Source: a virus
Taxonomy: Duplodnaviria > Heunggongvirae > Uroviricota > Caudoviricetes
Virus record (IMG/VR): IMGVR_UViG_2547132278_000021
Span: 1-24,897 of that record
Direction: 5' to 3' (one strand)
DNA length: 24,897 nucleotides
A program made the position numbers and the translations under genes. Positions within the stretch are counted from its first letter, which is position 1; each line of letters opens with the position of its first letter. This document shows, one piece after another, positions 3,898-18,693 of this stretch. The notes under the pieces were generated by a model. It worked only from the letters and a program-made list of their open reading frames with translations, was not told where the DNA came from and ran no database searches.

Positions 3898-4233
3898 TTA
3901 CACGCCCAGTTCTTTACGCTTATCTGCGATCTTCTCGCGGAGCGTTTCGGCTTTGGCGTTATGGTGTGGCTTCTCGTTAAAGAGCAATTCGTACTCTTCA
4001 CGGAGCTTATCCAGTTCACCATCATCTGACACATCATTGATGATTTTGGTGCTGGTTGCTGCCATAGACACCTTTCCTGCTACCTTTGCTTTTGCCTGTC
4101 TGGCTGCATCGTTAACAGGTTCCAGTGCGCTACCAGGCTCACCTTCGTATTCGATTTCTGCCCCCTCCGGCCACAGAGTGTTATGGATATGAGAGAGGCG
4201 CAGAACGCGGTATCTTGGTTTCTCACCTGACAT
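3898..4233 (-). CDS. Hypothetical small virion protein (111 aa from ATG 4233)
   Basis: ATG at 4233 preceded by AAGGTGA with 5-nt spacing; track start 4242 is a GTG. Lies between capsid and tail genes. Confidence 0.5.
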   Translation of the reverse strand: MSGEKPRYRVLRLSHIHNTLWPEGAEIEYEGEPGSALEPVNDAARQAKAKVAGKVSMAATSTKIINDVSDDGELDKLREEYELLFNEKPHHNAKAETLREKIADKRKELGV

Positions 4234-4732: not shown

Positions 4733-5725
4733 TTACACCACGCGGGCTTCTGTTTCCAGAAGCGCATCAGTTTCACGGATTGGTACACCACGGAATGAAG
4801 TCCACCACTCGCCTTCTGTCTCTTTTACGCTGATCGCCAGAGATGTTTTCTCCAGAGATTGCAGATCAAGAGCCTGTCCTACAGTGCGGTTCATGTAGAA
4901 CACTGGGCGCCCCATGCCACGGTTTGGAATGCGATGCAGTGCTTTAACCATCAACTTCGCAATATTTGCGGCAGAGGAAGGTTCTGAAAGATTGCTGACA
5001 TCGATGTTTGCAATGCGAACGACATAACGCCAGTCACGCAGAGCAAGTCCGTTATCCCATTTGTAATGGGTACGGTAGCCTTCGTACTTGCCGCCATTAG
5101 CATCTTCCAGTGTCACCTGGCCTTTATCTTCCATCTGAATGCCAGCCTTCTGCCCTTTCGGGAAGATGCCATGCACGGTGTTTTCGCCCCACACCACTAA
5201 CCAGATTGAGGTGTTATCTGTACCCGTGCCACCAGCATCAATGATGTTCTGAGCATTACCCGCAGACAGGCTGGAATAGCGGGATGACAGTCCCATAAAC
5301 TGCTGAGGGTTAACGCTGGAATCACCATAAAACAGCGTCTGCGCCATCTGCTGATTCATCGCTTCAATAAATGCGCGGTCTTCAGACAGGCGGAATTCGG
5401 CGGTATTGCCGTTCAGATCAGCCAGTGACTTATCGACTTCAGCATAGGTTTCCAGCATGCCAACGGAATCGGTTACCTGCACTGTGGTTGATTTGCTTGG
5501 CTGTACTCCATAGTTCAGCAAACGCCAGGTAGCTGAAGGTAAACCAGAACGAATGGTGGTTCGGTGTCCGGTAGGAAGGTTCCCTTCGACAAAAGGCATA
5601 TCCTGAAGGATCGGGTTAGTTTGACCGAGAAGCTCGATAATCTTATCGACTTTCCCGTTTGGATCGACGCGCTTACCCCAGTCAGCCAGCGTTAGCGCAG
5701 TTAAGCCTTTAACAGCCATTGTCAT
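4733..5725 (-). CDS. Major capsid protein (330 aa; start may be the second ATG at 5719)
   Basis: ~36-kDa ORF directly after an acidic scaffold-like gene, in the canonical portal-scaffold-capsid order. GAGAGG Shine-Dalgarno upstream is better spaced for ATG 5719. Confidence 0.7.
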   Translation of the reverse strand: MTMAVKGLTALTLADWGKRVDPNGKVDKIIELLGQTNPILQDMPFVEGNLPTGHRTTIRSGLPSATWRLLNYGVQPSKSTTVQVTDSVGMLETYAEVDKSLADLNGNTAEFRLSEDRAFIEAMNQQMAQTLFYGDSSVNPQQFMGLSSRYSSLSAGNAQNIIDAGGTGTDNTSIWLVVWGENTVHGIFPKGQKAGIQMEDKGQVTLEDANGGKYEGYRTHYKWDNGLALRDWRYVVRIANIDVSNLSEPSSAANIAKLMVKALHRIPNRGMGRPVFYMNRTVGQALDLQSLEKTSLAISVKETEGEWWTSFRGVPIRETDALLETEARVV

Positions 5726-6431: not shown

Positions 6432-6728
6432 TCACTCCTGTTCACTGGCCTCTTTGGCCATCTTCAAATACTGTTCAGGGCAATGCGCCATAACGCGCTG
6501 AAACAGTTCCAGCGCCAGATTGCGTTGCCCCTCATTAAATGCCATTGCCATAGCATCCATCGGAGAGATAGCGGAAAACACCCGGCCTTTCTCCAGCACA
6601 GACCAGACAACGCGACGCCCCTGTTCACTGCTCATGACAAAGCGAATGTCATCAATTTCACGCTGTGCCATGTCACGTTGCTTACGGGCGTTTTCTTCTT
6701 TCAGTTGATCGTCCTCGTAATCTGTCAT
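6432..6728 (-). CDS. Hypothetical 98-aa protein between portal and scaffold
   Basis: ATG 6728-6726 overlaps the portal stop (ATGA coupling); charged helical protein. Confidence 0.55.
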   Translation of the reverse strand: MTDYEDDQLKEENARKQRDMAQREIDDIRFVMSSEQGRRVVWSVLEKGRVFSAISPMDAMAMAFNEGQRNLALELFQRVMAHCPEQYLKMAKEASEQE

Positions 6729-8404
6729 TGTGATTGCCCACCCTGACCACTAACTGCATTCGCCATAGCTGACAAAACACTCGGATCCGAAGTTTTAGCT
6801 TCGCTTAGCGTCTTGGCACCCTGTGCCGCCGCCATTCCCATCGCCATCATTTGTTGCTGCTGTTGCTGCTGTGCCCGTTGCTGGCGAGCCTGCTCAACCT
6901 GTTCCTGCGGAACAATGACGGTTGGAGACACTCCGGACATATCAGCGAATGCATCGATCGCCTGATCAACATTGAGTTTGTCGAGAGCTTCTGGTTTCGC
7001 TTGCGCAAGTTGACCAATGAAGTTGACCGTAGACGCCAGACTGGACAGGCCGATAGACTTCTGCGCCTGAGCCATGACGGAAATGTATTCGACCTTCAGG
7101 GGCATACCTTCCATCGCGTCAGGCGGTGGCGGCAGCATGTTTTTACGCACCATCATCGAGAAAGCGCGGTCAATGAGAGGATTAAGACATTCGTCGTTCA
7201 GACGCTCCAGAACCGGCCCCAACATCAGAAGTTTTTCTTCTTTCATTTCGATCACCGCTTCAACAGGCATCGAGCGGGTATTGATGTTCTGCAACATCAT
7301 GAACAGATCGACAAAGTAGGCGCTGTTAATGATTTGACGGGTGTCCTGAATGTCTGCCACCAAATCTGCTGTACTGGGGTTAACCAGATAAGCAGGCCTG
7401 AAACCATCCTGACCAGTAATCTGATCGATATACGTGATGTCGCCAGGAAGAAGGGAGGCACGCTGATTCTTGAGGGAAGTCGGAGCAACCATCGGCGGAT
7501 TGGTGGCTTTATCAATCAACTGCGACTTGCGCTTCTGGAGAAGCTGCAATGCCTTAACAGGTCCAAGCGCCAGCATACCCGGGCATGATGATCCATAAAC
7601 ATCTTCGCCGTTAACTTCCCAGCGCGGAGCCATAATTGGAAACTCATCGAATCCGGACTCGCGCAACAACTTGTCGTTATCGCCACCAACCTCGTAATAA
7701 ACCGATTTGAATGGCTTGTTCTTGCTATCCAGCTTCGATGTATCGCGGTCAATGTTCGGGTAAACCGAATGCATCACTTCAATCCACTTCTCGTAGGTGC
7801 CGCTTTCCCACATGCTTTTTACGGATTCGCTGACGTTATTTAGCCCGAACTCCTGAACAAGCTGACGAACAGTCATAGAGAACTTGCGAAAACAGGTGTC
7901 CACACTGCCACGAGGTGAGTTAGCCAGGTAGTAACTGCCTATCGGGAATGGCATTGTGCGAATGATGTCCTCGTCATCCTCCAGCACTGCCATTGCACCA
8001 GTGCTGTATGTGCCGAGGCTTCCGTATAACTGCGGCAGCGACTGATAGAGATTCGACTTATTGAACATATCGTTCATGCGGTTCTGCACCGCCTCAAGCC
8101 ACAACTTAACAGGGCCATAATCCATCATTTCAGGATCTGGCGTAGCCAGGCGAAACCACGGACGCGCGGGGCTTGTGATGCCTGACATCATGCCGCTGGC
8201 GAGAGTGCGCGCCGCCATAGTCCCGGTCGAATCAATAATGCGTGTATTGCGTCGATCGTTACGGTTGACCTCAGAAGTCAGAAAGCGGGAACCACGTGGG
8301 TTGATGTAATCACTCAACTCGCGCCAGTGCGGCTCGAACGACTGACGCTCGCTTTCAAGTTGTGCGAACTGTTTGTTCAATCGCTCTTTAGTTGTTTCCG
8401 CCAT
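6725..8404 (-). CDS. Portal (head-to-tail connector) protein, podovirus type (559 aa)
   Basis: Size, position after terminase, and a Gln-rich C-terminal tail (QQRAQQQQQQQMMAMGMAAAQGA...) reminiscent of T7-type connectors. Start context CCGGAGTCATTGAA-ATG. Confidence 0.75.
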   Translation of the reverse strand: MAETTKERLNKQFAQLESERQSFEPHWRELSDYINPRGSRFLTSEVNRNDRRNTRIIDSTGTMAARTLASGMMSGITSPARPWFRLATPDPEMMDYGPVKLWLEAVQNRMNDMFNKSNLYQSLPQLYGSLGTYSTGAMAVLEDDEDIIRTMPFPIGSYYLANSPRGSVDTCFRKFSMTVRQLVQEFGLNNVSESVKSMWESGTYEKWIEVMHSVYPNIDRDTSKLDSKNKPFKSVYYEVGGDNDKLLRESGFDEFPIMAPRWEVNGEDVYGSSCPGMLALGPVKALQLLQKRKSQLIDKATNPPMVAPTSLKNQRASLLPGDITYIDQITGQDGFRPAYLVNPSTADLVADIQDTRQIINSAYFVDLFMMLQNINTRSMPVEAVIEMKEEKLLMLGPVLERLNDECLNPLIDRAFSMMVRKNMLPPPPDAMEGMPLKVEYISVMAQAQKSIGLSSLASTVNFIGQLAQAKPEALDKLNVDQAIDAFADMSGVSPTVIVPQEQVEQARQQRAQQQQQQQMMAMGMAAAQGAKTLSEAKTSDPSVLSAMANAVSGQGGQSQ

Positions 8405-8418
8405 TTCAATGACTCCGG

Positions 8419-8625
8419 TTACTGACCAAGCAGCGTTTTACCGCTGGTATTAGCGGTTGATGTGTCGCCCTGAGAACCGGTAAGCAGCGTAGAACTACGA
8501 CCAGCAGCAGCGCGACGGCGACGAGTTTCTTCGTCGCGGGCATCAACAACGGCGGCATCCTGCTCCTGTGGTGCTGCCTGAACTTCTGGTGTTGCAGGCA
8601 CTGATGGTGAGCTACCCATGCACAT
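8419..8625 (-). CDS. Hypothetical 68-aa low-complexity protein upstream of portal
   Basis: ATG at 8625 is preceded by the same initiation block (GGAGTCATTGA-N-ATG) as the portal gene; Ser/Thr/Ala/Gln-rich. The overlapping 79-aa track ORF 8406..8645 starts on TTG and is less likely. Confidence 0.4.
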   Translation of the reverse strand: MCMGSSPSVPATPEVQAAPQEQDAAVVDARDEETRRRRAAAGRSSTLLTGSQGDTSTANTSGKTLLGQ

Positions 8626-8653
8626 ATCAATGACTCCGTACGCAATTAAATTA

Positions 8654-8730
8654 TTACCAATTTAACCACATATGATTTATTTATCGTAGATAGTTGACAT
8701 TTAACGCACAAATTATTACCTTTCAGGTAA
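8654..8730. promoter_or_regulatory. Operator-like site TTACC-TTTCA-GGTAA (8716-8730) with consensus -35 TTGACA (8694-8699) and a degenerate upstream half-site (8654-8668) at the cassette spacing
   Basis: Perfect 15-bp dyad identical in form to the immunity-region operators. Flank AAATTATTACC matches the flank of the pL-like proximal operator. Transcription direction not resolved. Confidence 0.45.
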
Positions 8731-9052
8731 GCAAAGAGTTCATTCCGGTTATTAACCTGACTGGCTTGTCGTTAAATTGAACAGGTGGAGTGAGCTTTTA
8801 TTTTGAGCAGTACGGCGTATGGCACATGCGCCGATAGCGGTCTGGATACGTTTAAGGGGCACCCTCCCTTGCTCGGGCAAACGAACCAGGTAGCCGGAAT
8901 GTGCAAGTCGAGCGGTTTTATTCCGCGCACGGGGATTCACCATCCCGGCGATTTGGTGTGACGCCTCGGAAGAGACGAGGGTACAACGATGAGAGCATTT
9001 ATGGAGCCGCGACAAAGTGTGGCGCCTTAACAGGCTAAGTGCTCTCAGCGTT

Positions 9053-9129
9053 GTGGCATTAGCTCAGTTGGACAGAGCAACCGCCTTCTAAGCGGTTGGT
9101 CGCAGGTTCGAATCCTGCATGCCACGCCA
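9053..9129 (+). tRNA. tRNA-Arg (anticodon TCT, decodes AGA)
   Basis: 77-nt cloverleaf folded by hand: acceptor GTGGCAT/ATGCCAC, D stem GCTC/GAGC, anticodon stem ACCGC/GCGGT with loop CTTCTAA (U33, TCT, A37), T arm GCAGG-TTCGAAT-CCTGC, discriminator G, encoded CCA. Confidence 0.9.
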
Positions 9130-9172
9130 GAATCACGCCTAAGGACCGTGATGCCAGAAGTTCCAGGTGCTT

Positions 9173-9214
9173 GGCGGTGATGGTTTCCCTTGAAGGACTA
9201 TCACCGCCCTTTTT
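9173..9214 (+). terminator. Intrinsic terminator downstream of the tRNA
   Basis: 9-bp stem GGCGGTGAT / ATCACCGCC followed by CTTTTT. Confidence 0.5.
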
Positions 9215-9292
9215 ACAGCAGGACGCCATTGCGATGACTTCATGCTGTAAACCCGTACAGCCACGGAAGGCATAACTCATTGCTTCCAGTTC

Positions 9293-9316
9293 GCCCGGTT
9301 CGCCGGGCATTTTTTT
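9293..9316 (+). terminator. Intrinsic terminator-like hairpin immediately upstream of the Gp49-like gene
   Basis: GCCCGG-TTCG-CCGGGC stem-loop followed by A + TTTTTTT. Confidence 0.5.
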
Positions 9317-9327
9317 AAGGTGAGATT

Positions 9328-9653
9328 ATGAACGACCAGCAAATCGAAAAAGAAATCGTTGAGAAAGGCAAAACCGCTCCGCGAGTTACGCCTCAATATA
9401 TCGAAAGCATCATTCTTGAAGAGCATTTCTTTACTGCTTAGACGGCATTCGTGCTGCCAATATGGGCGTTGGCGATTCATGGACAGCGCATAAATCTACA
9501 GACCTCCTGACTTTCTGCGTATTGGTACTGAAGAATGGCTTCACCGTCACCGGAGAGAGTGCCTGTGCAAGTCCGGAAAATTTTGATGCAGAAATTGGTC
9601 GGAAGATTGCCCGGCAGAATGCTGTAAACAAAATCTGGATGCTTGAAGGTTAA
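9328..9653 (+). pseudogene. Gp49-like small phage protein gene (Phage_gp49_66-type) disrupted by a frameshift
   Basis: ATG 9328 with AGGTGAG Shine-Dalgarno encodes MNDQQIEKEIVEKGKTAPRVTPQYIESIILEEHFFTA then TAG at 9439-9441. The adjacent frame continues from 9441 (DGIRAANMGVGDSW...LKNGFTVTGESACASPENFDAEIGRKIARQNAVNKIWMLEG) to TAA 9651-9653; the two frames join with a 2-nt offset. Confidence 0.5.
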
Positions 9654-9686
9654 TTGCTGAAGCAGAAGTTAAGCGAGCAATAACAC

Positions 9687-9700
9687 CGTGACATGTCACA
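9687..9700. repeat. 14-bp element CGTGACATGTCACA (perfect 12-bp palindrome GTGACATGTCAC), copy 1, downstream of terL
   Basis: Identical 14-mer recurs at 11952-11965. Confidence 0.8.
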
Positions 9701-9703
9701 AAC

Positions 9704-9730
9704 AGCCAGCCGATGAGCTGGCTTTGTTTT
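9704..9730 (+). terminator. Intrinsic terminator (possibly bidirectional) between the Gp49-like gene and the terL 3' end
   Basis: Stem AGCCAGC / GCTGGCT with loop CGATGA, followed by TTGTTTT; A-rich on the other side. Confidence 0.55.
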
Positions 9731-9773
9731 ATCCTCACCAGAGGATATCTCCGTCATTATCCCCGCTAACGGA

Positions 9774-11249
9774 TTAAGCATAGGGATCGTAATCTGTAAT
9801 GGCCTTGCCTTGCTGGTTCTGCTGCCCGGGAATTCGCAGGCGCTTTGACACCGGGAAAGCAAACGTCAGCAGTAGCGCATCGCCTTTACCAGGCGAACGC
9901 CCAAGTCGTTCTTTGATATCTTCCTTCGGTTCGATAACGATTTTACCGTCCACGCGAACTTTGTACTCTGCCGCCGACAGGTCGTCTGCAGTTTCCTGGT
10001 CATCCAGCATGCCGCCTAGCCTCAGCCATGTCTTGCATGAGTTGAACATCTCCCCACGCTTGTTGAGCATCTGCGGGTCAGTAGACGCGCCACCGAACGG
10101 AACAAGTTGCCATGTACGACCCCAGCCGTCACCGATTGACTTCAAACCGGTTCCGTAACCGAAGTCGATGAACACCGCGTCAGCCTGATACTGGTCTTCA
10201 AAGTCAGCGATACGCTTCGCCATAATCAGATCGTCGGTAGTCTTGTTGCCAGTCCACAGCACCTTACTGTGCAGCCCCTGCCGCAGGTATATCACAGCGT
10301 CATCAACGCCTGAGTATGCCGGGTCAACGCCGATTATCACCGGAGCATGTGCAACCTGCGCAGCGGTTACCACCCGTTTCATTGCCTCATCAGTAAGACC
10401 GGTAGGGATAAACTGCAATTCAGATGCATCAGGGAATATGCCGCGCACACGGACCTTCACGAAGTCGCTGTCCTCGCCATGGTCTTCAATCCATTTTTGA
10501 ATCTGCTCTTTGTTCGTTCCTTCGACGGTACGGCTGTCGATCTGCTTCGTAACCCAGCGGTGTTTATATTTGCGGAAGCATTCCCTGAAACGCCCGGAGT
10601 TACGCGTAGGGTTTCCGAACGCTACCCAGATGATTTCCGTGTCTTCGTCCGTCAGCGCACCCTCGGCCACCTCCCAAACTTTATCAGCAATGTTTGACGC
10701 CTCATCGAATACCACGATGATCCGCTTACGCTCGTTGTGCAGGCCGGCGAACGCCTCGGTGTTGTGCTCAGACCACGGGATTGCGTCAGCGCGCCAGCGT
10801 TTATCGTGGCCCGGATCATTGCTGTACATGGCTGTTGCTGGGGTAGAGAACCAGTCTTTCGTGATGGACAGGTTTGCCCACTTAATCACTTCAGGCCATG
10901 TCTTGGTACGCAGCTGATTTTCGGTGTTGGCAGTGACTACTGCTTTGCAGTCTTCGCAGGTTGACATACCCCAGTTCAGGAGCATGGAAATACCCGCACT
11001 TTTCCCTATGCCGTGGCCTGAAGAAACGGCAATCATCAGCGGCTGATGACGGGTTTCTGGGTTCCTGAGGTGCTCACCAACCGTATCGAGCATCCATCTT
11101 TGCCAGTTTCTTGGTCCGGATGCATGCGCCAGCTCTGTACCCTCTTCCCCCCACGGGAACGCATAGAGGGCATAGCCAAGCGGATCGTGAGTGAACCCTG
11201 CTATATCCTCGATCAACTGCTCTTCAGGAGATAACGATGTATCTGTCAC
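9774..11249 (-). CDS. terL: Terminase large subunit (491 aa)
   Basis: N-terminus SPEEQLIEDIAGFTHDPLGYALYAFPWGE..., a Walker-A-like GHGIGKSAG and an acidic VVFDEASNI stretch, then a nuclease-sized C-terminal domain. GTG start at 11249 overlaps the terS stop (GTGA). Confidence 0.85.
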   Translation of the reverse strand: MTDTSLSPEEQLIEDIAGFTHDPLGYALYAFPWGEEGTELAHASGPRNWQRWMLDTVGEHLRNPETRHQPLMIAVSSGHGIGKSAGISMLLNWGMSTCEDCKAVVTANTENQLRTKTWPEVIKWANLSITKDWFSTPATAMYSNDPGHDKRWRADAIPWSEHNTEAFAGLHNERKRIIVVFDEASNIADKVWEVAEGALTDEDTEIIWVAFGNPTRNSGRFRECFRKYKHRWVTKQIDSRTVEGTNKEQIQKWIEDHGEDSDFVKVRVRGIFPDASELQFIPTGLTDEAMKRVVTAAQVAHAPVIIGVDPAYSGVDDAVIYLRQGLHSKVLWTGNKTTDDLIMAKRIADFEDQYQADAVFIDFGYGTGLKSIGDGWGRTWQLVPFGGASTDPQMLNKRGEMFNSCKTWLRLGGMLDDQETADDLSAAEYKVRVDGKIVIEPKEDIKERLGRSPGKGDALLLTFAFPVSKRLRIPGQQNQQGKAITDYDPYA

Positions 11250-11839
11250 TGATTACCATCCTGACGTTCTTTGAGTCGCTTCCTGGCTGCTGCTATGCGA
11301 TCAGCAATTGTCACATTCACATTAACATCCAGACGTTCTTTGAACGCGTTGACATCAACATGCTTACCAATCAGCTCAAGGTTCTTCACCTTGTCAGGCC
11401 ATTTAATTTTTTTGAGGATTGTCTCTATCGAATCCTCGTTCATGTTCATGATGGTCGATGACAGATCAAAGCCACTAAGCGTAGTGCGCCAGATTTTCGG
11501 CCACTCACGGATTGGTTTAAGGCTCCCATCGTCGTTGAGGATGTCGATCACGTCCATCTGGTCGATCTCCACCAGGCGCATGAGAACGTAATCAGCACTG
11601 ACGCGCATTCGTTTGTTGCGCTCCTCCATCAACTCGGCAATCCGTTTTTGAATGCGTTCATCGCGCATCATGACACTGGCTTTAACTGCCGCTGTATTTG
11701 GAGAGAATCCTGCGTTAATCGCTGCCTGAGTCTGGTTTTCAGGCGTTTTGATGTATGACTGGCAATAAGCCTCCTGCATTGCTGTTAGTGGCTTAAATTG
11801 CGTTGATTTGCGTTTATAGGTTTTAGGTTCAGCAGGCAT
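11246..11839 (-). CDS. terS: Terminase small subunit (Terminase_2-like), ~197 aa from the internal ATG
   Basis: Region LTAMQEAYCQSYIKTPENQTQAAINAGFSPNTAAVKASVMMRDERIQKRI has the Terminase_2 HTH pattern. Track start 11920 would place a terminator hairpin inside the coding sequence; ATG 11839 is preceded by GGTGG. Confidence 0.75.
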   Translation of the reverse strand: MPAEPKTYKRKSTQFKPLTAMQEAYCQSYIKTPENQTQAAINAGFSPNTAAVKASVMMRDERIQKRIAELMEERNKRMRVSADYVLMRLVEIDQMDVIDILNDDGSLKPIREWPKIWRTTLSGFDLSSTIMNMNEDSIETILKKIKWPDKVKNLELIGKHVDVNAFKERLDVNVNVTIADRIAAARKRLKERQDGNQ

Positions 11840-11884
11840 CATAACCACCGTGGTAATAGTTACCGTTGTGGTAATAGTACCATG

Positions 11885-11911
11885 CAAAATAAAGCCGCCA
11901 TAGTTGGCGGC
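11885..11911 (-). terminator. Intrinsic terminator hairpin upstream of terS
   Basis: Minus-strand GCCGCCA-ACTA-TGGCGGC followed by TTTATTTTG. Confidence 0.5.
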
Positions 11912-11951
11912 AGTATTCAAAACCCATCAAATTCATCATGCATAATCTACT

Positions 11952-11965
11952 CGTGACATGTCACA
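11952..11965. repeat. 14-bp element CGTGACATGTCACA, copy 2, overlapping the stop of the Cys-rich gene
   Basis: Identical to 9687-9700. Confidence 0.8.
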
Positions 11966-12299
11966 CTATTAATTTCGTTTCATGCCAGCCTTTAGTCACC
12001 CAGCATTGCGAGTCACCATTACACGGGCATGAATTAACTGGAACTCTCTCGCCGCACTTACCGCAACATTTTCTGCTGATCGATTTTATACGCCCGCGCA
12101 CGCGTGCATCATCCTGGCGGATCAGTAACGCTATATACTCACCAAATTCGTAAGGCGCACGCCCGGGGCGACGCGTGGCACAGTTACGCTCCAGCATTTC
12201 AATTTCCTGAGCATCAAGCACAATTTCCAGCTTACGCACACCAGATGCAGCTTGTCTGGCTCTCTGAGCGGCTTTGCGCTCTGCTGCTGATTTAGCCAT
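11961..12299 (-). CDS. Hypothetical Cys-rich protein (112 aa) with basic Arg/Ala-rich N-terminus
   Basis: ATG at 12299. N-terminus [24 protein letters not shown]-terminus [22 protein letters not shown] suggests metal binding. Sits immediately upstream of the palindrome, terminator and terminase genes. Confidence 0.5.
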
Positions 12300-12633
12300 T
12301 CTGATTTTCCTGCATCATGAGAAATACAATCATGGCGGCGCGGAGAGGTCTGGTATCAAATATTGGTCTTACGCCTTTTGCATCAACACACCATTCAGTT
12401 AACTGGTCTAAGATAGAAATCCTGTGTTTCTCAATAATCGGCCATGAGGCGCTAGGATCATTGCAGTAGTCAGGTAAATGGTTTAATGGCTCAAAAGTTG
12501 TATCAGTATTTCCGTAATACCATTTGTTGGTGTTATTCCCTGATGTTTCCGGTTTACATGCCCAAAGGCCTTTAAAAATTATGTCTCCTACCATTCTGTT
12601 AATTTCAAAATCACTTAACTGTGAATAGTCCAT
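12292..12633 (-). CDS. NinX-like (DUF2591-type) phage protein, 113 aa
   Basis: ATG 12633 overlaps the upstream TGA (ATGA) and follows AGGAGGTG. Family assignment from memory of the [13 protein letters not shown]-terminus; tentative. Confidence 0.5.
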
Positions 12634-13547
12634 CACTTCACCTCCTGCGGCGGTTCTGGTAGAGGCATCCAGTGGGTTACACCGCCAATTGGCTCATCGT
12701 CGTCGTACTCCAATGCGGCTATATAGAACCCGTCACGACGAGAATAAGAAATCCCGGACATTACAATGCCATCCGAAACAACAATAATGTCACCCGTTTC
12801 TTTCGGCATTCGCTCACTACAGCTTATCCAGGCATCCAGAGTTACCGGAACTTGTGGAATGGCTGTCTGCTCTCGAACGTCATTAGGCGCTATAGGTTCT
12901 GCTGCCAACTGACTGGCATATTTGTTAATGGTAACGATAAGCTCTTGCTCAGCCTCATCCAGACAATCACCGATACCTCGCCTGTCACCGTCAAAATCAT
13001 CGAAATCGGCACGAATCCTGGCAACCTTCAGGATTGCGGACAACACCTCACTAGGAATTGCCGGATAGTTGGTTGACGTTTCCGCGATTTCCCGAAAATT
13101 ATTGGTTGACGAATTCTTATTTTCCCGAAAGTTTCCGGACTGAAGCATGGCGGCGCGGCAGGCGTTCCAGCCAGCTGTTCGCCCAAGCGCGTAAACTTCA
13201 GATGGCTCAAGATAATCAATGTCATGCCCGTCCTCATCGTCGTTCTCAGGTAATGCAGCAGGTACTACCGGTACTGGCGGAGCGGCGTAGACTTCAATAA
13301 TCCCATTATCAATAGGCCATTCTCCATCCTTGAGATAGTCACTTGTGCCGTCAACTTGCTGTTCAGCAATGTGGAATGCACCAACTGGCTCTGCTGCCAG
13401 CGATGCCAATGCGATTTCCAAAACAGCAATATCCATTTTATATGTGCGGATGATGTCATGGTCGATTGTGCCTGGTATGCACAGTCTCTGTGCTTCAATA
13501 GTCTCCTCTGCGTGAGTTATTAACTGCTCTCTGGTAAAAGTGGTCAT
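12633..13547 (-). CDS. Hypothetical phage protein (304 aa) with C-terminal DUF551-like motif
   Basis: Ends ...[17 protein letters not shown], characteristic of DUF551 C-termini. Strong AAGGAG Shine-Dalgarno 6 nt before ATG 13547. Confidence 0.6.
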
Positions 13548-13557
13548 GTGTTACTCC

Positions 13558-13821
13558 TTAACCCGCAGTGCTTTCAACTGATGAGGGGAACAAAATCTTT
13601 TCATCAAACCCTGCATTCATATCATGAACAGCAACACACCAATCCACCGACGAACGATTATCAAGAGCCTCCATGATTTCATCCATGCGGCGTAGGTCAT
13701 ACAGGTAAATGTTTTTATCGCCAATGGTGTAAAAGCCAATTTTTTTCGGTGATGGACAGCGATCAATGACGTCCTGTAATTCGTTCAACCATGCCTGTTC
13801 TTTTTTTGTCAAAGTTGCCAT
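13558..13821 (-). CDS. Hypothetical protein (87 aa from internal ATG 13821)
   Basis: ATG 13821 preceded by AAGGAAAA; track start 13911 would overlap the upstream gene. Confidence 0.45.
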   Translation of the reverse strand: MATLTKKEQAWLNELQDVIDRCPSPKKIGFYTIGDKNIYLYDLRRMDEIMEALDNRSSVDWCVAVHDMNAGFDEKILFPSSVESTAG

Positions 13822-13822
13822 A

Positions 13823-14041
13823 TCAGTTTTCCTTATACGGATTAATTTTATTGTGCAGTGTGTTGAACGGGGCCCATACAACGTCGTTATACAATTCAAT
13901 AACGGGCTCAATTACTTTTCCGATTATCCAGGCCAGTAATAGCGGGGATATCGGTATCATCAACACGATAAACAGAATGAGAAACAAAAATTCTGTCGCT
14001 CTACTTTTTCGCGGATATTCTTTTCTGAATAATGTAGTCAT
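13823..14041 (-). CDS. Small membrane protein (72 aa, one predicted transmembrane helix)
   Basis: Basic N-terminus then hydrophobic FLFLILFIVLMIPISPLLLAWIIG. Locally AT-rich by eye, and preceded by a 143-bp AT-rich gap containing palindromes. Confidence 0.5.
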   Translation of the reverse strand: MTTLFRKEYPRKSRATEFLFLILFIVLMIPISPLLLAWIIGKVIEPVIELYNDVVWAPFNTLHNKINPYKEN

Positions 14042-14125
14042 TTCTTACCGCCCTTTCGGACGGTCTCCTGATGTTCTGAGGGTGCAGGAATCCCTCCGGT
14101 TAAGGATTAAATTTTATTTACAGAA

Positions 14126-14152
14126 CTGAATTTAATTATTCAGATATACGTA
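14126..14152. promoter_or_regulatory. Palindrome-rich AT-rich intergenic region upstream of the small membrane protein gene
   Basis: CTGAAT-TTAATT-ATTCAG inverted repeat (14126-14143) and ATACGTAT (14145-14152). Confidence 0.3.
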
Positions 14153-14184
14153 TCTGTAACCTTACGAACCTACTCACTGGATGC

Positions 14185-14658
14185 CTATTTCATAAAAATA
14201 ATCCAGTGGGTTTTATCGTTTTTTCCTGTTCGTTGACCGATAACAGGCTTTCTGTCGGTCAGTGCCAATATTTGGCGAACAGGTATTTGCGTTTCATTCC
14301 ATTTAAAAATCAGAACGCCGTATGGCCACAACACACGAAAGGCTTCTTTAAATCCCTGCCGCAAATCATCACGCCAGGTATCTTTATTCATCCGTCCATA
14401 TTTCTTTCTCATCCAGGCGTTATCACCAACACGTTCAAGATGCGGAGGGTCGAATACAACAACCGGAAACGATGCGTCTGCAAATGGTAATGCACGAAAA
14501 TCTGCTATCAGGTCAGGGCTAATTATCAGCCGTCGTCCATCACATAATGTGTGCTCTTCCTTTCTGATATCGCTAAATATCGCCCGGTCGTCATTCTTAT
14601 CGAACCAGAACATGCGACTGCCACAGCACATGTCGAGGATTGTTGCATGTCCAGTCAC
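14185..14658 (-). CDS. Small phage Dam-like N6-adenine DNA methyltransferase (157 aa)
   Basis: SAM-binding motif I-like ILDMCCGS near the N-terminus and catalytic DPPH (DPPY-type) motif in VVVFDPPHL. GTG start at 14658 overlaps the upstream TGA. Confidence 0.6.
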   Translation of the reverse strand: MTGHATILDMCCGSRMFWFDKNDDRAIFSDIRKEEHTLCDGRRLIISPDLIADFRALPFADASFPVVVFDPPHLERVGDNAWMRKKYGRMNKDTWRDDLRQGFKEAFRVLWPYGVLIFKWNETQIPVRQILALTDRKPVIGQRTGKNDKTHWIIFMK

Positions 14659-15188
14659 TGGTTGCCTCCTTTGCGAAGCTGGGAGGCTAACTCATCACAT
14701 ATGTGCGTCAAAGAGCAAAGTTTGATTGATGGATGTTCGCGCATCATCTCCACCCCCTGTGCCCGTACTTCAGCCAGGAAAGCGTCGGTAGCTGGAATGG
14801 GCTTTTGTGGTGATATGGCTATGAGAATTGTCTCAAGGTCTGGATCCGTTTCCGCTGTTGGTACCCTGATATAACCCATCTGCACCCCATTCATGATGAA
14901 CCTGCGACGGTCATCACATATCGCCTTTAGCCCCGCATTCTCCGCAGCCAGCACCGAAAACTTCTCGTGTGCCAACTTAACAGCCGCATCAGCCTGCTTA
15001 ATTGACTCAATCGCTTTCTGCTGGTCTTCGGCCAGCGCATTAGCACGCACCAGTTGCACTTCCAGTTGCGTTGCCAAATCGCTGATCAGCTTTGCCACAC
15101 TGCGCATATCAACGGCACCACATTCTGCTTTCAGTTCCGAAGCCATCTCATGCCCGGCGGAAACTAACCCTTTGATATTACTTTCCAT
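14655..15188 (-). CDS. Hypothetical protein (177 aa), coiled-coil N-terminal half
   Basis: ATG 15188 preceded by GAGGG; no recognisable catalytic motif. Confidence 0.5.
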   Translation of the reverse strand: MESNIKGLVSAGHEMASELKAECGAVDMRSVAKLISDLATQLEVQLVRANALAEDQQKAIESIKQADAAVKLAHEKFSVLAAENAGLKAICDDRRRFIMNGVQMGYIRVPTAETDPDLETILIAISPQKPIPATDAFLAEVRAQGVEMMREHPSIKLCSLTHICDELASQLRKGGNQ

Positions 15189-15249
15189 CTTTACCCTCGC
15201 TTATCCACATAACTTATTGATTACATTGATAACTAAAAAGATCGTCGAT

Positions 15250-15594
15250 TCAGAACTCTTCGATGTTCCAGCCACCACCTGCTTTCTTTGGTTTAACCGT
15301 TACCCCGATGATTCGGAACGGATACTGATCTGCGGCGACTTTGGTTTTCACCCTGGCGTCGTCGGTCCAGAAACCTTTCACTTCGTGTAGTTCCATCTCG
15401 CCGGTGGCGAGCATCACAGCAAAATCGGGCGTATAGAACGTGTTGTCAGCTAACCGCAGCTTGATACCCTCGAATCGATACCAGGCGATTTCCCCTGCAC
15501 GTTTACGCTGCTCAAGGTGCTGGCAATACGCAGATTCTGTTTTGTTCATCTGGCCTGTTTGGAGTCGACCAAGAGCCTGTATCTGTTTTCTCAT
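15250..15594 (-). CDS. DUF1064-like phage protein, possible PD-(D/E)XK-fold nuclease (114 aa)
   Basis: Motif YTPDF...EMELHEVKG is compatible with a D...E.K nuclease core. First gene after the internal promoter-operator cassette. Confidence 0.5.
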   Translation of the reverse strand: MRKQIQALGRLQTGQMNKTESAYCQHLEQRKRAGEIAWYRFEGIKLRLADNTFYTPDFAVMLATGEMELHEVKGFWTDDARVKTKVAADQYPFRIIGVTVKPKKAGGGWNIEEF

Positions 15595-15597
15595 GAT

Positions 15598-15674
15598 TTA
15601 CCTCTAAGGTAATTAAAAACCACATAAGACACGAAATCAATAGATCTAAGAATATTTTGTTACCTATCAGGTAA
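15598..15674 (-). promoter_or_regulatory. Internal promoter-operator cassette: operators TTACC-TCTAA-GGTAA (15598-15612) and GTTACC-TATCA-GGTAAC (15659-15675) flanking -10 TTTAAT (15612-15617) and -35 TTGATT (15635-15640)
   Basis: Two perfect dyads 62 bp apart centre to centre, the same spacing and layout as the pL-like cassette; 17-bp spacer between the hexamers. Confidence 0.6.
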
Positions 15675-15686
15675 CTATTGAGGCGT

Positions 15687-15706
15687 AAAAAAATGCGCTA
15701 TCGCGC
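15687..15706 (-). terminator. Weak terminator-like element after the P-like gene
   Basis: Minus-strand GCGC-GATA-GCGC hairpin followed by TTTTTTT; only a 4-bp stem. Confidence 0.3.
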
Positions 15707-15711
15707 TGGTA

Positions 15712-16512
15712 TTACTTGATAAATCCTGCCGCCTTTCCCCGCCTGTATTCCTCCATCAGCCACTGCGCCGGTGTTATTCCCCCAAGGGTGGCGGCGTTAG
15801 GCATGCACCCGAAACTTCGCCCTGGTGGATGGTAAACGTCTCTCCCTGTGTCCGGAGGTGTACTCATGGGCTCTGGCTTTGCCTGTATGCTGATCACCGG
15901 ATCGGGTATCTGCTGTCCGGAAGCCACCTTTTTCGCCCAATCATCGAGCAGCCTGCGCGCGTGTTTCTCAACCTCAATCTCGCTAAGCTGGCGCTGATAC
16001 ATTGCACGGCGGGTATCACATACGACCCAGTACATAACCGGATGTCGCCACGGGAATCTTTCGGGACCACCAGGATATAAACTTTTTTCCTTGCTGTACC
16101 GGTGAAACTCCGCCATCACATCGTCAATGGTGACGCCAAGAACCATCTTGCTGTCTTTGCACCACTTGATAAATTGCCCTGGCGACGGCCAGAACGGAGA
16201 TTCACTGGCGCGGGCGTGGCGCATACCAGCAGAAACCTGTTCACGGGTTCGGATCCCCCCTTCGGCAAACGCAGCAATCCACTGCTGTTTTGCAGCAACT
16301 TCCTGCTCTGGCGTCTTCAGGTTGGTTACCACTGCCGCCGGAAACAGTTGTTTCAACTGTTTGAAAAGGGCATCAACAAGCCTCTCTGCTGACATGTTCA
16401 CCACATTGTCATTGTTGACGTACTGATGCTCATAACCTGACATGCGAGAAAGGGCTTCTCCGTCACGGTTTTGTATCGCGGTAAAAACGTTGTTCACAAG
16501 AAATCCTCCCAC
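15712..16512 (-). CDS. Lambda P-like replication protein (helicase loader), 266 aa; start codon uncertain
   Basis: QWIAAFAEGGIRTREQVSAGMRHARASESPFWPSPGQFIKWCK parallels the lambda P core (QWVLAFRENGITTMEQVNAGMRVARRQNRPFLPSPGQFVAWCR, recalled from memory). Track start is a GTG overlapping the O-like gene 3' end. Confidence 0.8.
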   Translation of the reverse strand: MGGFLVNNVFTAIQNRDGEALSRMSGYEHQYVNNDNVVNMSAERLVDALFKQLKQLFPAAVVTNLKTPEQEVAAKQQWIAAFAEGGIRTREQVSAGMRHARASESPFWPSPGQFIKWCKDSKMVLGVTIDDVMAEFHRYSKEKSLYPGGPERFPWRHPVMYWVVCDTRRAMYQRQLSEIEVEKHARRLLDDWAKKVASGQQIPDPVISIQAKPEPMSTPPDTGRDVYHPPGRSFGCMPNAATLGGITPAQWLMEEYRRGKAAGFIK

Positions 16513-17357
16513 GCTTCAGGGCTGTTCCAGTGCGGAACGTTGTTATCAGGTAATGTTGATTGCTTCTGTCTGCTAATCTGCAGCCGCCTTGCCAGCTTCT
16601 GCTCCCACTGTGCCTGATGGTATGCCTTACCCTCAGCCATCCAGTAAATTCTGAACTCTGCAAGTTCCTGTGCCGTTGGCAGACTGTCCAGGTAGATTCC
16701 CTGCAATGAGCTTTTCCGAAGAAAGTCATCTGATGGCTGCCATTGTTCATGCATGACAAATTTGCCTAATTGCCCTGGCCCACCAGGAGGAACAAAGTTA
16801 TTCATCACGGCGTTGTTTGCGCCGGGGTCATGAGGCACAGAATCCCCGGTTTTTGTCCTGCTCTCCCTCTCTTGGTTAAATGACTGGTTATATGACTGGT
16901 TCTGGATCCCGTTTTTGGGATCATTCAACATCCCGTTTTTGGGATCATTCAACATCCCGTTTTTGGGATCATTCAACATCCCGTTTTTGGGATCATTCAA
17001 CATCCCGTTTTTGGGTATATTCCCGTTTTCGGGAACATTACCGTTTTCGGGTTCATTACCCCCTTCCCGGTTGCCTTTAATGTTCCCTTTTTTGGTTATA
17101 TTAAGAGAGAAAACCCGTACTCTTTTCGTCGCCCCCTTTCTCTCTCCGGTATCTGAAATAAGCCCCATTTTCATGAGCGATATAAGCCCGGCCTGCACGG
17201 TTTTTTTATTCAGGCAAGTGTCTTTAACGAGGCGTTCTATGCTGGGGTAGCAGAGGTTATATTCATCGGCTCTGTCAGCCATCGAGAGCAGTATGAGCTT
17301 TAATGACGAGCTACCTGGATCTGTCTCCCAGGCCCAATCTGTTGCATGTCTGCTCAT
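16494..17357 (-). CDS. Lambda O-like replication initiator (287 aa) with internal origin repeats
   Basis: N-terminal winged-helix-like region (LKLILLSMADRADEYNLCYPSIERLVKDTCLNKKTVQAGLISL), central PKNGMLND repeats encoded by the iterons, and a C-terminal domain. GGAGA Shine-Dalgarno before ATG 17357. Confidence 0.8.
   Translation of the reverse strand: MSRHATDWAWETDPGSSSLKLILLSMADRADEYNLCYPSIERLVKDTCLNKKTVQAGLISLMKMGLISDTGERKGATKRVRVFSLNITKKGNIKGNREGGNEPENGNVPENGNIPKNGMLNDPKNGMLNDPKNGMLNDPKNGMLNDPKNGIQNQSYNQSFNQERESRTKTGDSVPHDPGANNAVMNNFVPPGGPGQLGKFVMHEQWQPSDDFLRKSSLQGIYLDSLPTAQELAEFRIYWMAEGKAYHQAQWEQKLARRLQISRQKQSTLPDNNVPHWNSPEAWEDFL
16906..17001. repeat. Candidate replication origin iterons: four perfect 24-bp direct repeats (ATCCCGTTTTTGGGATCATTCAAC), with degenerate copies to ~17060
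   Basis: Seen directly in sequence. Each unit carries an ATCCC...GGGAT dyad. Location inside the initiator gene mirrors lambda ori. Confidence 0.75.
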
Positions 17358-17990: not shown

Positions 17991-18053
17991 TCACCCATAA
18001 GGTAACAAAAATCAAGGATAGTTACCTATGAGGTGCATTTACCTGTTGGGTAA
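17991..18053. promoter_or_regulatory. Immunity-region operator cluster (OR-like): TCACC-CATAA-GGTAA (17991-18005), TTACC-TATGA-GGTGC (18022-18036), TTACC-TGTTG-GGTAA (18039-18053)
   Basis: Three dyads in the 154-bp divergent intergenic region between the cro-like and repressor genes. Candidate cro promoter hexamers TTGTTA/TATTAT overlap the first site. Confidence 0.65.
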
Positions 18054-18108: not shown

Positions 18109-18693
18109 ATGAAAAGTATCCAGGACGTCCGCAGGCAAAATCTCAACGACTTGATCGACCGTGAATTCAATGGTGTTCAGACGCGGATGGCAGAAAAACT
18201 TGGAACTCAGGCAAATCTGGTAAACCGCTGGGCTCTTGGCAAGAAGGTTATCGGCGACCAGGTTGCGCGAAAAATTGAAGCTGCCGCCAATAAACCACGT
18301 AACTGGCTTGATATCGATCGCTCGCTTTCTCAAGAAGGTTTTCAGCCTGTCGGCCCGAGTGATATAGGTCAGCTGGCTGCTCACAACCTGGAACGCTGGA
18401 TGAGCGAAAGCCGCGACCTTTCAACGCAGGGAAAACTACACCGCGCATCCGGCGTCGCCCAGGTGACAATCAGCCGCCTGTTAAACAATGAGGTCAGCGT
18501 TTCCATTTCCACCCTGGAGAATGTTGCATCCGCATTCGGGCGTCATGGCTATGAATTACTGATTCACCCGCACGACCCTGCGACTATCAACTATGACCGC
18601 TCGCGCTACGCATTGTTACCCGAAACCGAGAAAGCAAAGATCGAAAGTTACATTGAATTTGTCATCAACCAGAACGAAAAAAGCAAACAATAA
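18109..18693 (+). CDS. Phage immunity repressor candidate: tandem double-HTH (XRE-type) protein with no LexA/S24-like cleavage domain (194 aa)
   Basis: Two HTH-like segments (TRMAEKLGTQANLVNRWALGKK and LHRASGVAQVTISRLLNNEV); divergent from the early-right operon; followed by a strong terminator. Confidence 0.65.
   Translation: MKSIQDVRRQNLNDLIDREFNGVQTRMAEKLGTQANLVNRWALGKKVIGDQVARKIEAAANKPRNWLDIDRSLSQEGFQPVGPSDIGQLAAHNLERWMSESRDLSTQGKLHRASGVAQVTISRLLNNEVSVSISTLENVASAFGRHGYELLIHPHDPATINYDRSRYALLPETEKAKIESYIEFVINQNEKSKQ

Follow-up and report, generated by a model that had tools for sequence, protein, structure and literature searches.

The question raised by this locus is what fills an island of about 1.1 kb (8646–9773, plus strand) that splits the large terminase gene from the gp3-like and portal genes in the window, that is, the whole stretch of 24,897 nucleotides at positions 1 to 24,897 of IMG/VR record IMGVR_UViG_2547132278_000021. 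On sequence grounds the window is an Escherichia coli prophage of the phiV10/epsilon15 type, genus Uetakevirus; positions 8300–9900 are 93–98% identical to phages phiV10 and ZX5 and O157 typing phages 9 and 10, and their identity to more than 200 E. coli chromosomes reaches 98.6%. A first-pass annotation had described the island as carrying a tRNA gene behind a leader of about 320 base pairs with no convincing open reading frame (ORF). The lack of an ORF is borne out, since no frame stays open throughout the homologues of 8730–9052 on either strand. The leader is not a passive one: it contains a widely conserved structured RNA of about 250 nucleotides with strong covariation (8806–9056, plus strand, hereafter the core). 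This RNA is absent from Rfam 15, from the searchable literature and from every record inspected.

The core comprises six helices and a pseudoknot. Helix P1 (8813–8821/8825–8833) is followed by P2 (8838–8845 with 8886–8889 plus 8893–8896), which encloses the variable element P2a, and by an invariant 19-mer, GGTAGCCGGAATGTGCAAG, at 8889–8907. Beyond the variable helix P3 lies P4 (8932–8936/8942–8946), whose loop CACC (8938–8941) pairs with GGUG (8955–8958) to form the pseudoknot. P5 (8964–8968/8976–8980) is capped by the loop GAAGAGA, which is purine-rich and boxB-like, and P6 (8984–9000/9037–9053) carries a variable apical insert. All of these helices lie on the plus strand. The core has invariant single-stranded blocks, and large insertions, some of them T-arm-like hairpins, occur among members in P2a, P3 and the tip of P6. 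The 3' strand of P6 often reads GUGCUCUUU, which is boxA-like, and in two members (L090 and L034) a hairpin and a perfect rrn boxA (GCTCTTTAACAA) stand in place of P6.

The fold is carried by covariation. In a structure-blind MAFFT alignment of 26 sequences less than 95% identical to one another, 94.7% of the cells at 48 pairs were paired and 19 of the 48 pairs had changed on both sides; none of 500 shuffles reached any of these measures, and slid controls paired at 30–43%. A model-based alignment of 80 distinct sequences was 97.7% paired. Compensatory changes are found in every helix. Because G-U pairs far outnumber A-C combinations (114 versus 21), the plus strand is the RNA strand under selection. 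A covariance model of the element (R1) scores 141 bits at 8810–8983, its sole copy in the window, and finds one strong match per genome. The lengths of the element are evenly spread over the three classes modulo 3. Rfam 15, searched at gathering score and at E ≤ 10, contains no match to the core in the window, in 13 diverse loci or in the mEp460 PL leader; the runs on the window, the 13 relatives and the mEp460 leader returned only tRNAs and unrelated C4, isrK and int-alpA matches. The searchable literature holds no description of this RNA, subscription-only works, among them the epsilon15 and P1 genome papers, lying outside that scope. That the core is a real, selected structure is almost certain.

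Its distribution extends well past this group of phages. Positions 8812–9052 have a counterpart of about 82% identity in unrelated lambdoid phages (mEp460, cdtI, Stx2c and Stx2a phages, Ayreon and 2H10), where the DNA concerned is unannotated, and another of about 79% identity in phages P1, P7 and D6 and some 590 P1-like plasmids, with further matches in phages of Klebsiella, Enterobacter and Salmonella. By BLAST, 1829 of 5426 complete E. coli genomes, about one third, carry the element, and beneath the match there is no feature annotated by the Prokaryotic Genome Annotation Pipeline (PGAP) in any of the 40 E. coli matches listed. At least 120 IMG/VR contigs contain the exact 19-mer. So do 24 species-representative genomes, of which 22 belong to Enterobacterales genera and the other two are metagenome bins (L144 and L156). 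These bins are labelled Oscillospiraceae and Bacillota, and their 19-mers most likely belong to mis-binned enterobacterial phage DNA. One IMG/VR contig (L028) has two core copies on the same strand about 650 nucleotides apart (3997–4155 and 4804–4960), the second without the exact 19-mer.

The genomic setting was recorded for 79 unique loci with enough flanking sequence. In lambdoid phages (42 of 79 loci), a CI-like repressor gene with helix-turn-helix (HTH) and S24 domains stands immediately upstream of the element on the same strand, and these repressors belong to two different families. In epsilon15-like phages (16 loci) it follows a conserved operator, and in P1-like elements (7 loci) ban is the next gene downstream. 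The order in mEp460 is cI, the cI terminator, two TTGC-N7-GCAA operators, a PL-like promoter, the element, a tRNA-like sequence of about 125 nucleotides, two hairpins and the early-left genes. The element begins about 35 nucleotides past the PL-like promoter, and the TTGC-N7-GCAA motif is also found at OR. The two hairpins are long and terminator-like, with U-tracts, and are predicted: the first was scored by a custom script and the second read by eye, neither being in the consensus scan. No N gene is annotated in mEp460, including before gp35. On the PR side of mEp460 (L004 206–394) and of Stx2a_WGPS2 (L007 708–896), in or next to an antirepressor-like gene, Rfam C4 (83.6 bits) and isrK (67 bits) matches lie adjacent to each other, so that both phages also carry a P1 immI-type RNA module.

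Phage P1 retains only the 5' 170 nucleotides of the element (helices P1 to P5), placed between trnI and ban within the C1-controlled ban operon, with tRNA-Ile2 directly upstream of the core. Just past this P1-type core, a 24-codon ORF (MTHIVRSDLSMPIISDIQHAWVEC, L006 3198–3275) lies upstream of ban and ends in TAATG over the presumed ban ATG (annotated ban start, L006 3273), an arrangement that suggests translational coupling of the small ORF to ban.

In the window, the first base of a tRNA-Arg(UCU) gene (9053–9129, plus strand) is the last base of P6. ARAGORN reads its anticodon as tct, Rfam RF00005 matches it with 73.3 bits (gathering score 29), and CCA is encoded at 9127–9129; the gene is thus intact, as had been claimed from the letters of the sequence. 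Across the family, the position between P6 and the first terminator, T1, holds tRNA-Arg(UCU) in 24 of 137 unique loci, always fused at GTT/GTGG. In about 100 of the 137 the leader is conserved without a tRNA gene, and many loci have a tRNA-like element at this position. The acceptor of that element consists of a 5' strand GUGGUGA and a 3' strand YCACCAC, with a tail of A-CCA, ACA or ACC. Its D-arm-like hairpin shows compensatory variants (GCGC/GCGC, GCAC/GUGC, GCCC/GGGC and GGCGG/CCGCC), and in its T-arm-like hairpin CCGG/CCGG is swapped for CUGG/CCAG, a true UUCGACU loop being present in Klebsiella pneumoniae. The element was located by a motif-anchored search, a search for the best 7-mer acceptor partner having proved too noisy. 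Because the Rfam tRNA model does not match it and its folding energy is unremarkable (z-score merely −1.1), it is named tRNA-like only, a designation held with moderate confidence for the members that lack the tRNA.

A trailer hairpin, GAAUCACG-CCUAAGGAC-CGUGAUGCC (9130–9155, stem 9132–9137/9147–9152, plus strand), follows the tRNA in the window, and the same hairpin follows the tRNA-like element in five other loci (L101, L105, L140, L145 and L059). In one locus (L071), a 63-residue ORF lies between P5 and T1, from about +120 to +310 after the 19-mer, a space that P6 together with the tRNA or tRNA-like element takes up in other members. The sequence ahead of T1 seems to be a cargo slot. On the evidence of these loci, the tRNA-Arg of the prophage is one filling of a conserved tRNA/tRNA-like slot and not a random moron. 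As for what the tRNA supplies, the ORFs of the window contain 6.2 AGA and 3.8 AGG per 1000 codons, the E. coli averages being roughly 2 and roughly 1. These codons are concentrated in the early genes (11961–17357), with none in capsid and portal, and the proposed rare-codon role of the tRNA remains plausible.

The slot is followed by terminators. T1 (9173–9216, plus strand) consists of a hairpin of 14 pairs (9173–9208) with the base GGCGGU...ACCGCC, followed by CUUUUUAC. T2 (9293–9316, plus strand) has six G-C pairs (9293–9308) and then seven T, and was found in the terminator scan. T3 (9704–9723) is a hairpin between the convergent Gp49-family and large terminase genes, with its U-tract on the plus strand. 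The terminator scan gave five sites against 2.1 ± 1.4 in shuffles, and the three predicted terminators, each a G+C-rich hairpin with a U-tract, agree with the three already proposed in the first-pass annotation. T1 was rightly seen there as a terminator of the island; that it is a conserved part of the RNA module was missed. In most family loci, T1 has the same GGCGGU...ACCGCC base, a covarying middle, a UCCUU-type loop and then UUUUUACA, and 86 of 102 unique loci have a terminator no more than 800 nucleotides downstream of the core, the corresponding figures being 43 for the upstream side and 42 for the antisense strand. Core and T1 are not a fixed distance apart, with a 77-nucleotide tRNA, a tRNA-like element of about 125–250 nucleotides or the 63-residue ORF in between. 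P1-type copies have no T1-type terminator. The hairpin equivalent to T2 is annotated as a rho-independent terminator in the epsilon15 record, and T3 is annotated on the terminase strand in the phiV10 record, so that T3 probably works in both directions.

The loops of P2a and T1 both contain a UCCUU-type, anti-Shine-Dalgarno-like motif. A lineage-specific identity between the two loops was considered and rejected: the longest common substring was 5.5 within the same locus versus 5.0 across lineages, which is merely the shared motif. A pairing of the P4 loop (UCACC) with the 5' strand of T1 (GGUGA) was also dropped, as the lambdoid copies show no covariation by inspection. In epsilon15 (L003 1790–1850), P1 and the 5' half of P2/P2a are joined to the 3' half of T1. 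This phage looks like a deletion derivative in which the P2a loop became joined to the T1 loop through their similar CCCTTGATGCT loops, with removal of the core and the tRNA.

Beyond T2 lies the only protein gene of the island, which the first-pass annotation had overlooked. It is a pseudogene of the Gp49/Sf6-gp66 family (9328–9653, plus strand; PF13876, Phage_gp49_66, E 3e-30 after repair), the disruption being called by alignment with the intact copies in E. coli SW070919 and phiV10. A deletion of one nucleotide near 9440 creates a TAG at 9439–9441, and a TAC to TAA change at 9651–9653 cuts the end short. No intact PF13876 ORF is present in the window, and the RNA and tRNA adjoining the pseudogene are 99% conserved. 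The Gp49 start codon stands 12 nucleotides past the end of T2, which leaves no room for a promoter. A scan under strict criteria found no promoter between T1/T2 and the next gene, either in the window or in mEp460. In phage Tyrion (L009 2298–2362), the position of T3, just after the Gp49-like gene, matches the Rfam int-alpA RNA (44 bits, the threshold being 35.8).

Upstream of the core is a divergent regulatory region (8646–8735), almost invariant in an alignment of the window, SPN1S, Tyrion and epsilon15. It contains an invariant TTGACA (8694–8699), 16 nucleotides after which stands an operator palindrome, TTACCTTTCAGGTAA (8716–8730), and the 11-nucleotide repeat AAATTATTACC at 8648–8658 and 8710–8720, which has three occurrences against 0.51 expected. 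The palindrome belongs to a motif, TTACC-N5-GGTAA, found ten times in the window against 0.43 expected (at 8716, 11842, 11860, 15598, 15660, 17654, 17991, 18039, 18751 and 18813) and clustered round an HTH repressor gene. The homologous site is labelled a repressor and IHF (integration host factor) site in the epsilon15 depositors' record. These counts and this label confirm the repressor-type operator that had been read from the sequence. Of the consensus −35 that had been assigned to it, the TTGACA itself is invariant; no convincing −10 hexamer was found near it, however, and a promoter scan came back empty. A promoter here is plausible.

The candidate repressor gene (18109–18693, plus strand) is flanked by the operators at 17991, 18039, 18751 and 18813. 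Its HTH_3 and LacI-type HTH matches fall at residues 104–148, that is, C-terminally. The phiV10-type repressor tested in the ZX5 paper is likewise described there as carrying a C-terminal HTH, and as a block to lytic genes on over-expression (PMC9782041); the likeness between the two proteins is one of description only. Two further operators, at 11842 and 11860, fall within the 5' end of the small terminase ORF as annotated. The Pfam match to this ORF begins only at residue 44, so that the true start may be further downstream. The terminase operon may thus be under direct repressor control.

Based on the results presented above, the core is probably an RNA that controls early phage transcription. 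The reading we favour, with a probability of about 0.4, is that the island, rather than being a plain tRNA moron, is an early transcription unit that yields stable RNAs under repressor control, and in which the core acts in cis as a put-like antiterminator past T1 and T2. Once the prophage repressor leaves the TTACC-N5-GGTAA operator, the unit would be transcribed. Given a tRNA or tRNA-like slot after P6, RNase P would be expected to cut at the end of P6; the cut, at GUU/GUGG, would release the core RNA and mature the tRNA-Arg, which could help to decode the AGA codons enriched in early genes. The core would act, by itself or together with host Nus factors, on RNA polymerase as it transcribes, and the polymerase would then pass T1 and T2 and reach the genes beyond, in the manner of the HK022 put RNA. 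In lambdoid PL transcripts without an annotated N gene, the module would supply an early antitermination function that has neither an annotated protein nor an annotated site.

In support of this, the core stands at the start of repressor-controlled early transcripts, terminators lie beyond it and no N is annotated. The variable distance between core and T1 fits a processive mechanism better than one of the riboswitch type. The boxB-like P5 loop and the boxA-like stretch, with the perfect rrn boxA in place of P6 in two variants, also favour this reading. N is missing from SfV-type lambdoid phages (PMC3851460), and for the N-less phage LLS, which has the same early-left genes as mEp460, a put-like RNA has been guessed (PMC12315714). 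On the other hand, several observations weigh against antitermination by the core, besides the missing −10 hexamer and the empty promoter scan. T1 is conserved together with the core and has a stem of 14–17 base pairs; terminators were resistant to one processive antitermination system when their stems were long (PMC10325885), so that transcription may really end at T1. Although P6, the tRNA-like element and T1 are all missing from P1-type copies, these copies are conserved. No second, PR-side copy was found in the whole mEp460 genome or in the window, even with filters off. The element is absent from the N-less phages SfV, ST64B and HK022. In epsilon15 the core is lost while the terminator and the Gp49 gene are kept. 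Finally, the boxA-like stretch is base-paired in P6 and is not kept in all lineages.

The main rival, nearly as likely as the cis model and likewise short of an even chance, is that the core is a stand-alone early RNA acting in trans on a hypothetical host or phage target, for which ribosome/Shine-Dalgarno sequences, a host defence system, Rho and RNA polymerase would be candidates. RNase P would then excise the core at the tRNA or tRNA-like element, T1 would be the end of a stable-RNA operon, and downstream read-through would be a leak or be handled by something else. Much of the architecture suits such an RNA: the module moves among unrelated phages together with its own long-stem terminator, a tRNA or tRNA-like element always flanks the core and offers processing sites (generally downstream, and upstream as tRNA-Ile2 in P1), and, as other stable structured RNAs do, the core varies in its peripheral domains by large insertions, T-arm-like hairpins among them. 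P1-type copies appear to work without T1, the UCCUU-type motif shared by the P2a and T1 loops resembles an anti-Shine-Dalgarno sequence, and the extreme conservation of the single-stranded blocks suggests a conserved host partner. Against this, in 42 of the 79 loci the module lies between PL and the early-left genes, where a strong stop would silence the operon unless overridden, and Gp49 has no promoter of its own according to the scan.

The remaining explanations fare considerably worse. A sensor (riboswitch, T-box-like element or attenuator), with a metabolite, a tRNA or a protein as the signal that sets termination at T1, would account for the size, conservation and aptamer-like character of the fold, for its pseudoknot and for the conserved terminator downstream of it, and also for its location at a lysis-lysogeny control point. 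Nevertheless, 60 to more than 250 nucleotides of unrelated cargo (tRNA, tRNA-like element or ORF) separate the fold from T1 without any overlap with an expression platform, no covarying alternative pairing with T1 was found, the UCACC/GGUGA candidate failing in the lambdoid copies, and P1-type copies have no terminator at all; such a device is therefore quite improbable. Still less can be said for a passive untranslated leader whose sole function is to supply tRNA-Arg(UCU). The intact tRNA and the enrichment of AGA/AGG in early genes would agree with it, but it is contradicted by the conservation of the leader in about 100 of 137 loci without the tRNA gene, by the compensatory changes in every helix and by the invariant single-stranded blocks, and we consider it very unlikely. 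Least probable of all, and close to negligible, is a minus-strand protein gene or a site acting at the DNA level. An 83-residue frame (ORF 8752–9015) is open in the window and in the lambdoid copies and was called as gp37 by the depositors of mEp460; it is, however, broken by 1–4 stops in other members, including one whose core is close to that of the window (L036). The even spread of element lengths over the three modulo-3 classes is not that of a coding frame, no Pfam match and no PGAP annotation among the E. coli matches listed supports one, and the excess of G-U over A-C shows selection on the plus-strand RNA. The mEp460 gp37 call (L004 2443–2811) is antisense to the core, and another, phiV10p04 (window 9059–9310, minus strand; L001 2260–2511), is antisense to the tRNA, T1 and T2; both are probably spurious.

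The surroundings of the island are those of its relatives. On the right lies the large terminase gene (9774–11249, minus strand), which has no match in Pfam and is so annotated in phiV10, epsilon15 and RefSeq E. coli records, and beyond it the small terminase gene (11246–11920, minus strand; PF03592). On the left, a gp3-like small ORF identified from the annotation of relatives (8419–8625, minus strand) is followed by the portal gene (6725–8404, minus strand; PF12236, 624 bits) and, by the gene order of the window, capsid GP7 (4733–5725, minus strand). The annotated relatives show the same terminase/gp3/portal order. The 1.1-kb gap between terminase and portal is therefore real, and transcription of the island opposite to the late genes, likewise part of the first-pass annotation, is supported. 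What does not stand is the view of the island as a peculiarity of this prophage, because it is kept in phiV10, ZX5, TL-2011b, SPN1S and more than 200 E. coli prophages. Island and tRNA were in fact already known: the phiV10, epsilon15 and RefSeq records share the tRNA-Arg, the Gp49-family gene, the terminators and the repressor site in the same place. Unlike the present analysis, these records leave the RNA at 8806–9056 unannotated.

Among known systems, the put RNA of phage HK022 is about 70 nucleotides long with two stem-loops and, like the core, has no evident phage protein partner (PMC9378689). The core, by contrast, has about 250 nucleotides, six helices and a pseudoknot. It is present as a single copy in the PL leader only (in mEp460), whereas put is found in two copies, at PL and PR, and unlike put it is followed by a tRNA or tRNA-like element. 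Model R1 has no match in the immunity region of HK022 (24000–34000), and BLAST gave no HK022 match. Read-through in cis by binding to the zinc-binding domain of the RNA polymerase beta' subunit is a defining feature of put, and for the core such read-through is a proposal. The lambda nut site, whose boxA and boxB are read by a phage N protein, and the rrn leader (boxB-boxA-boxC), both used with Nus factors, are resembled by the core in part: its P5 loop GAAGAGA is purine-rich, it often has the boxA-like GUGCUCUUU, and in two variants P6 gives way to a perfect rrn boxA. The core also lies in a long stretch of early RNA that is not translated and that Rho could otherwise attack. It differs from nut in that no N gene is annotated with it, its boxA-like stretch is paired in P6 and not universal, and it is far larger.

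The c4 RNA of P1/P7 and the CI RNA of P4 are early-leader regulatory RNAs, matured by RNase P, of 70–80 nucleotides and antisense in action. Like them, the core is located in the leader of a repressor-controlled early operon (in P1-like phages, the C1-controlled ban operon), and its tRNA-like flank implies RNase P processing; its length of about 250 nucleotides, however, sets it apart from these short antisense RNAs. The Rfam C4 and isrK models (RF01695 and RF01394) match mEp460 and WGPS2 on the PR side, not at the core element. In the species 1 and 2 RNAs of the T4 tRNA cluster and in MALAT1-mascRNA, where RNase P takes part in 3'-end formation, a structured RNA is likewise joined to a tRNA or tRNA-like element through which tRNA processing enzymes would set its end, an analogy of architecture only, without known sequence relationship. 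The core lacks defining features of put and C4 and therefore belongs to neither family, and it probably stands outside the nut family too; in kind, it is best placed among the early-leader regulatory RNAs of phages.

For the annotation of E. coli, this adds a common RNA gene that has gone unannotated, and several overlapping "hypothetical proteins" are probably spurious; the phage tRNA-Arg is recast as one filling of a conserved tRNA/tRNA-like slot. To our knowledge, no early antitermination mechanism has been shown for the many N-less temperate coliphages (SfV-type, LLS and, by annotation, mEp460 among them), and the core is a concrete candidate for one, since its fold is defined and its invariant blocks are open to mutation. 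Its presence in phiV10, mEp460, P1 and O104:H4- and Stx2c-type prophages means that model hosts are at hand. If the core acts in trans instead, it would be an abundant immediate-early phage RNA with a host target, which would be of comparable interest. We put forward tentatively, as something short of an even chance, that the core represents a new class of large phage RNA, one which works without any phage protein to reprogram a central host machine, in all likelihood RNA polymerase during elongation. If the cis reading is true, the core would be the early antitermination device of lambdoid phages without an annotated N, a device common to epsilon15-like podophages and P1-like phage-plasmids and carried by about one third of complete E. 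coli genomes.

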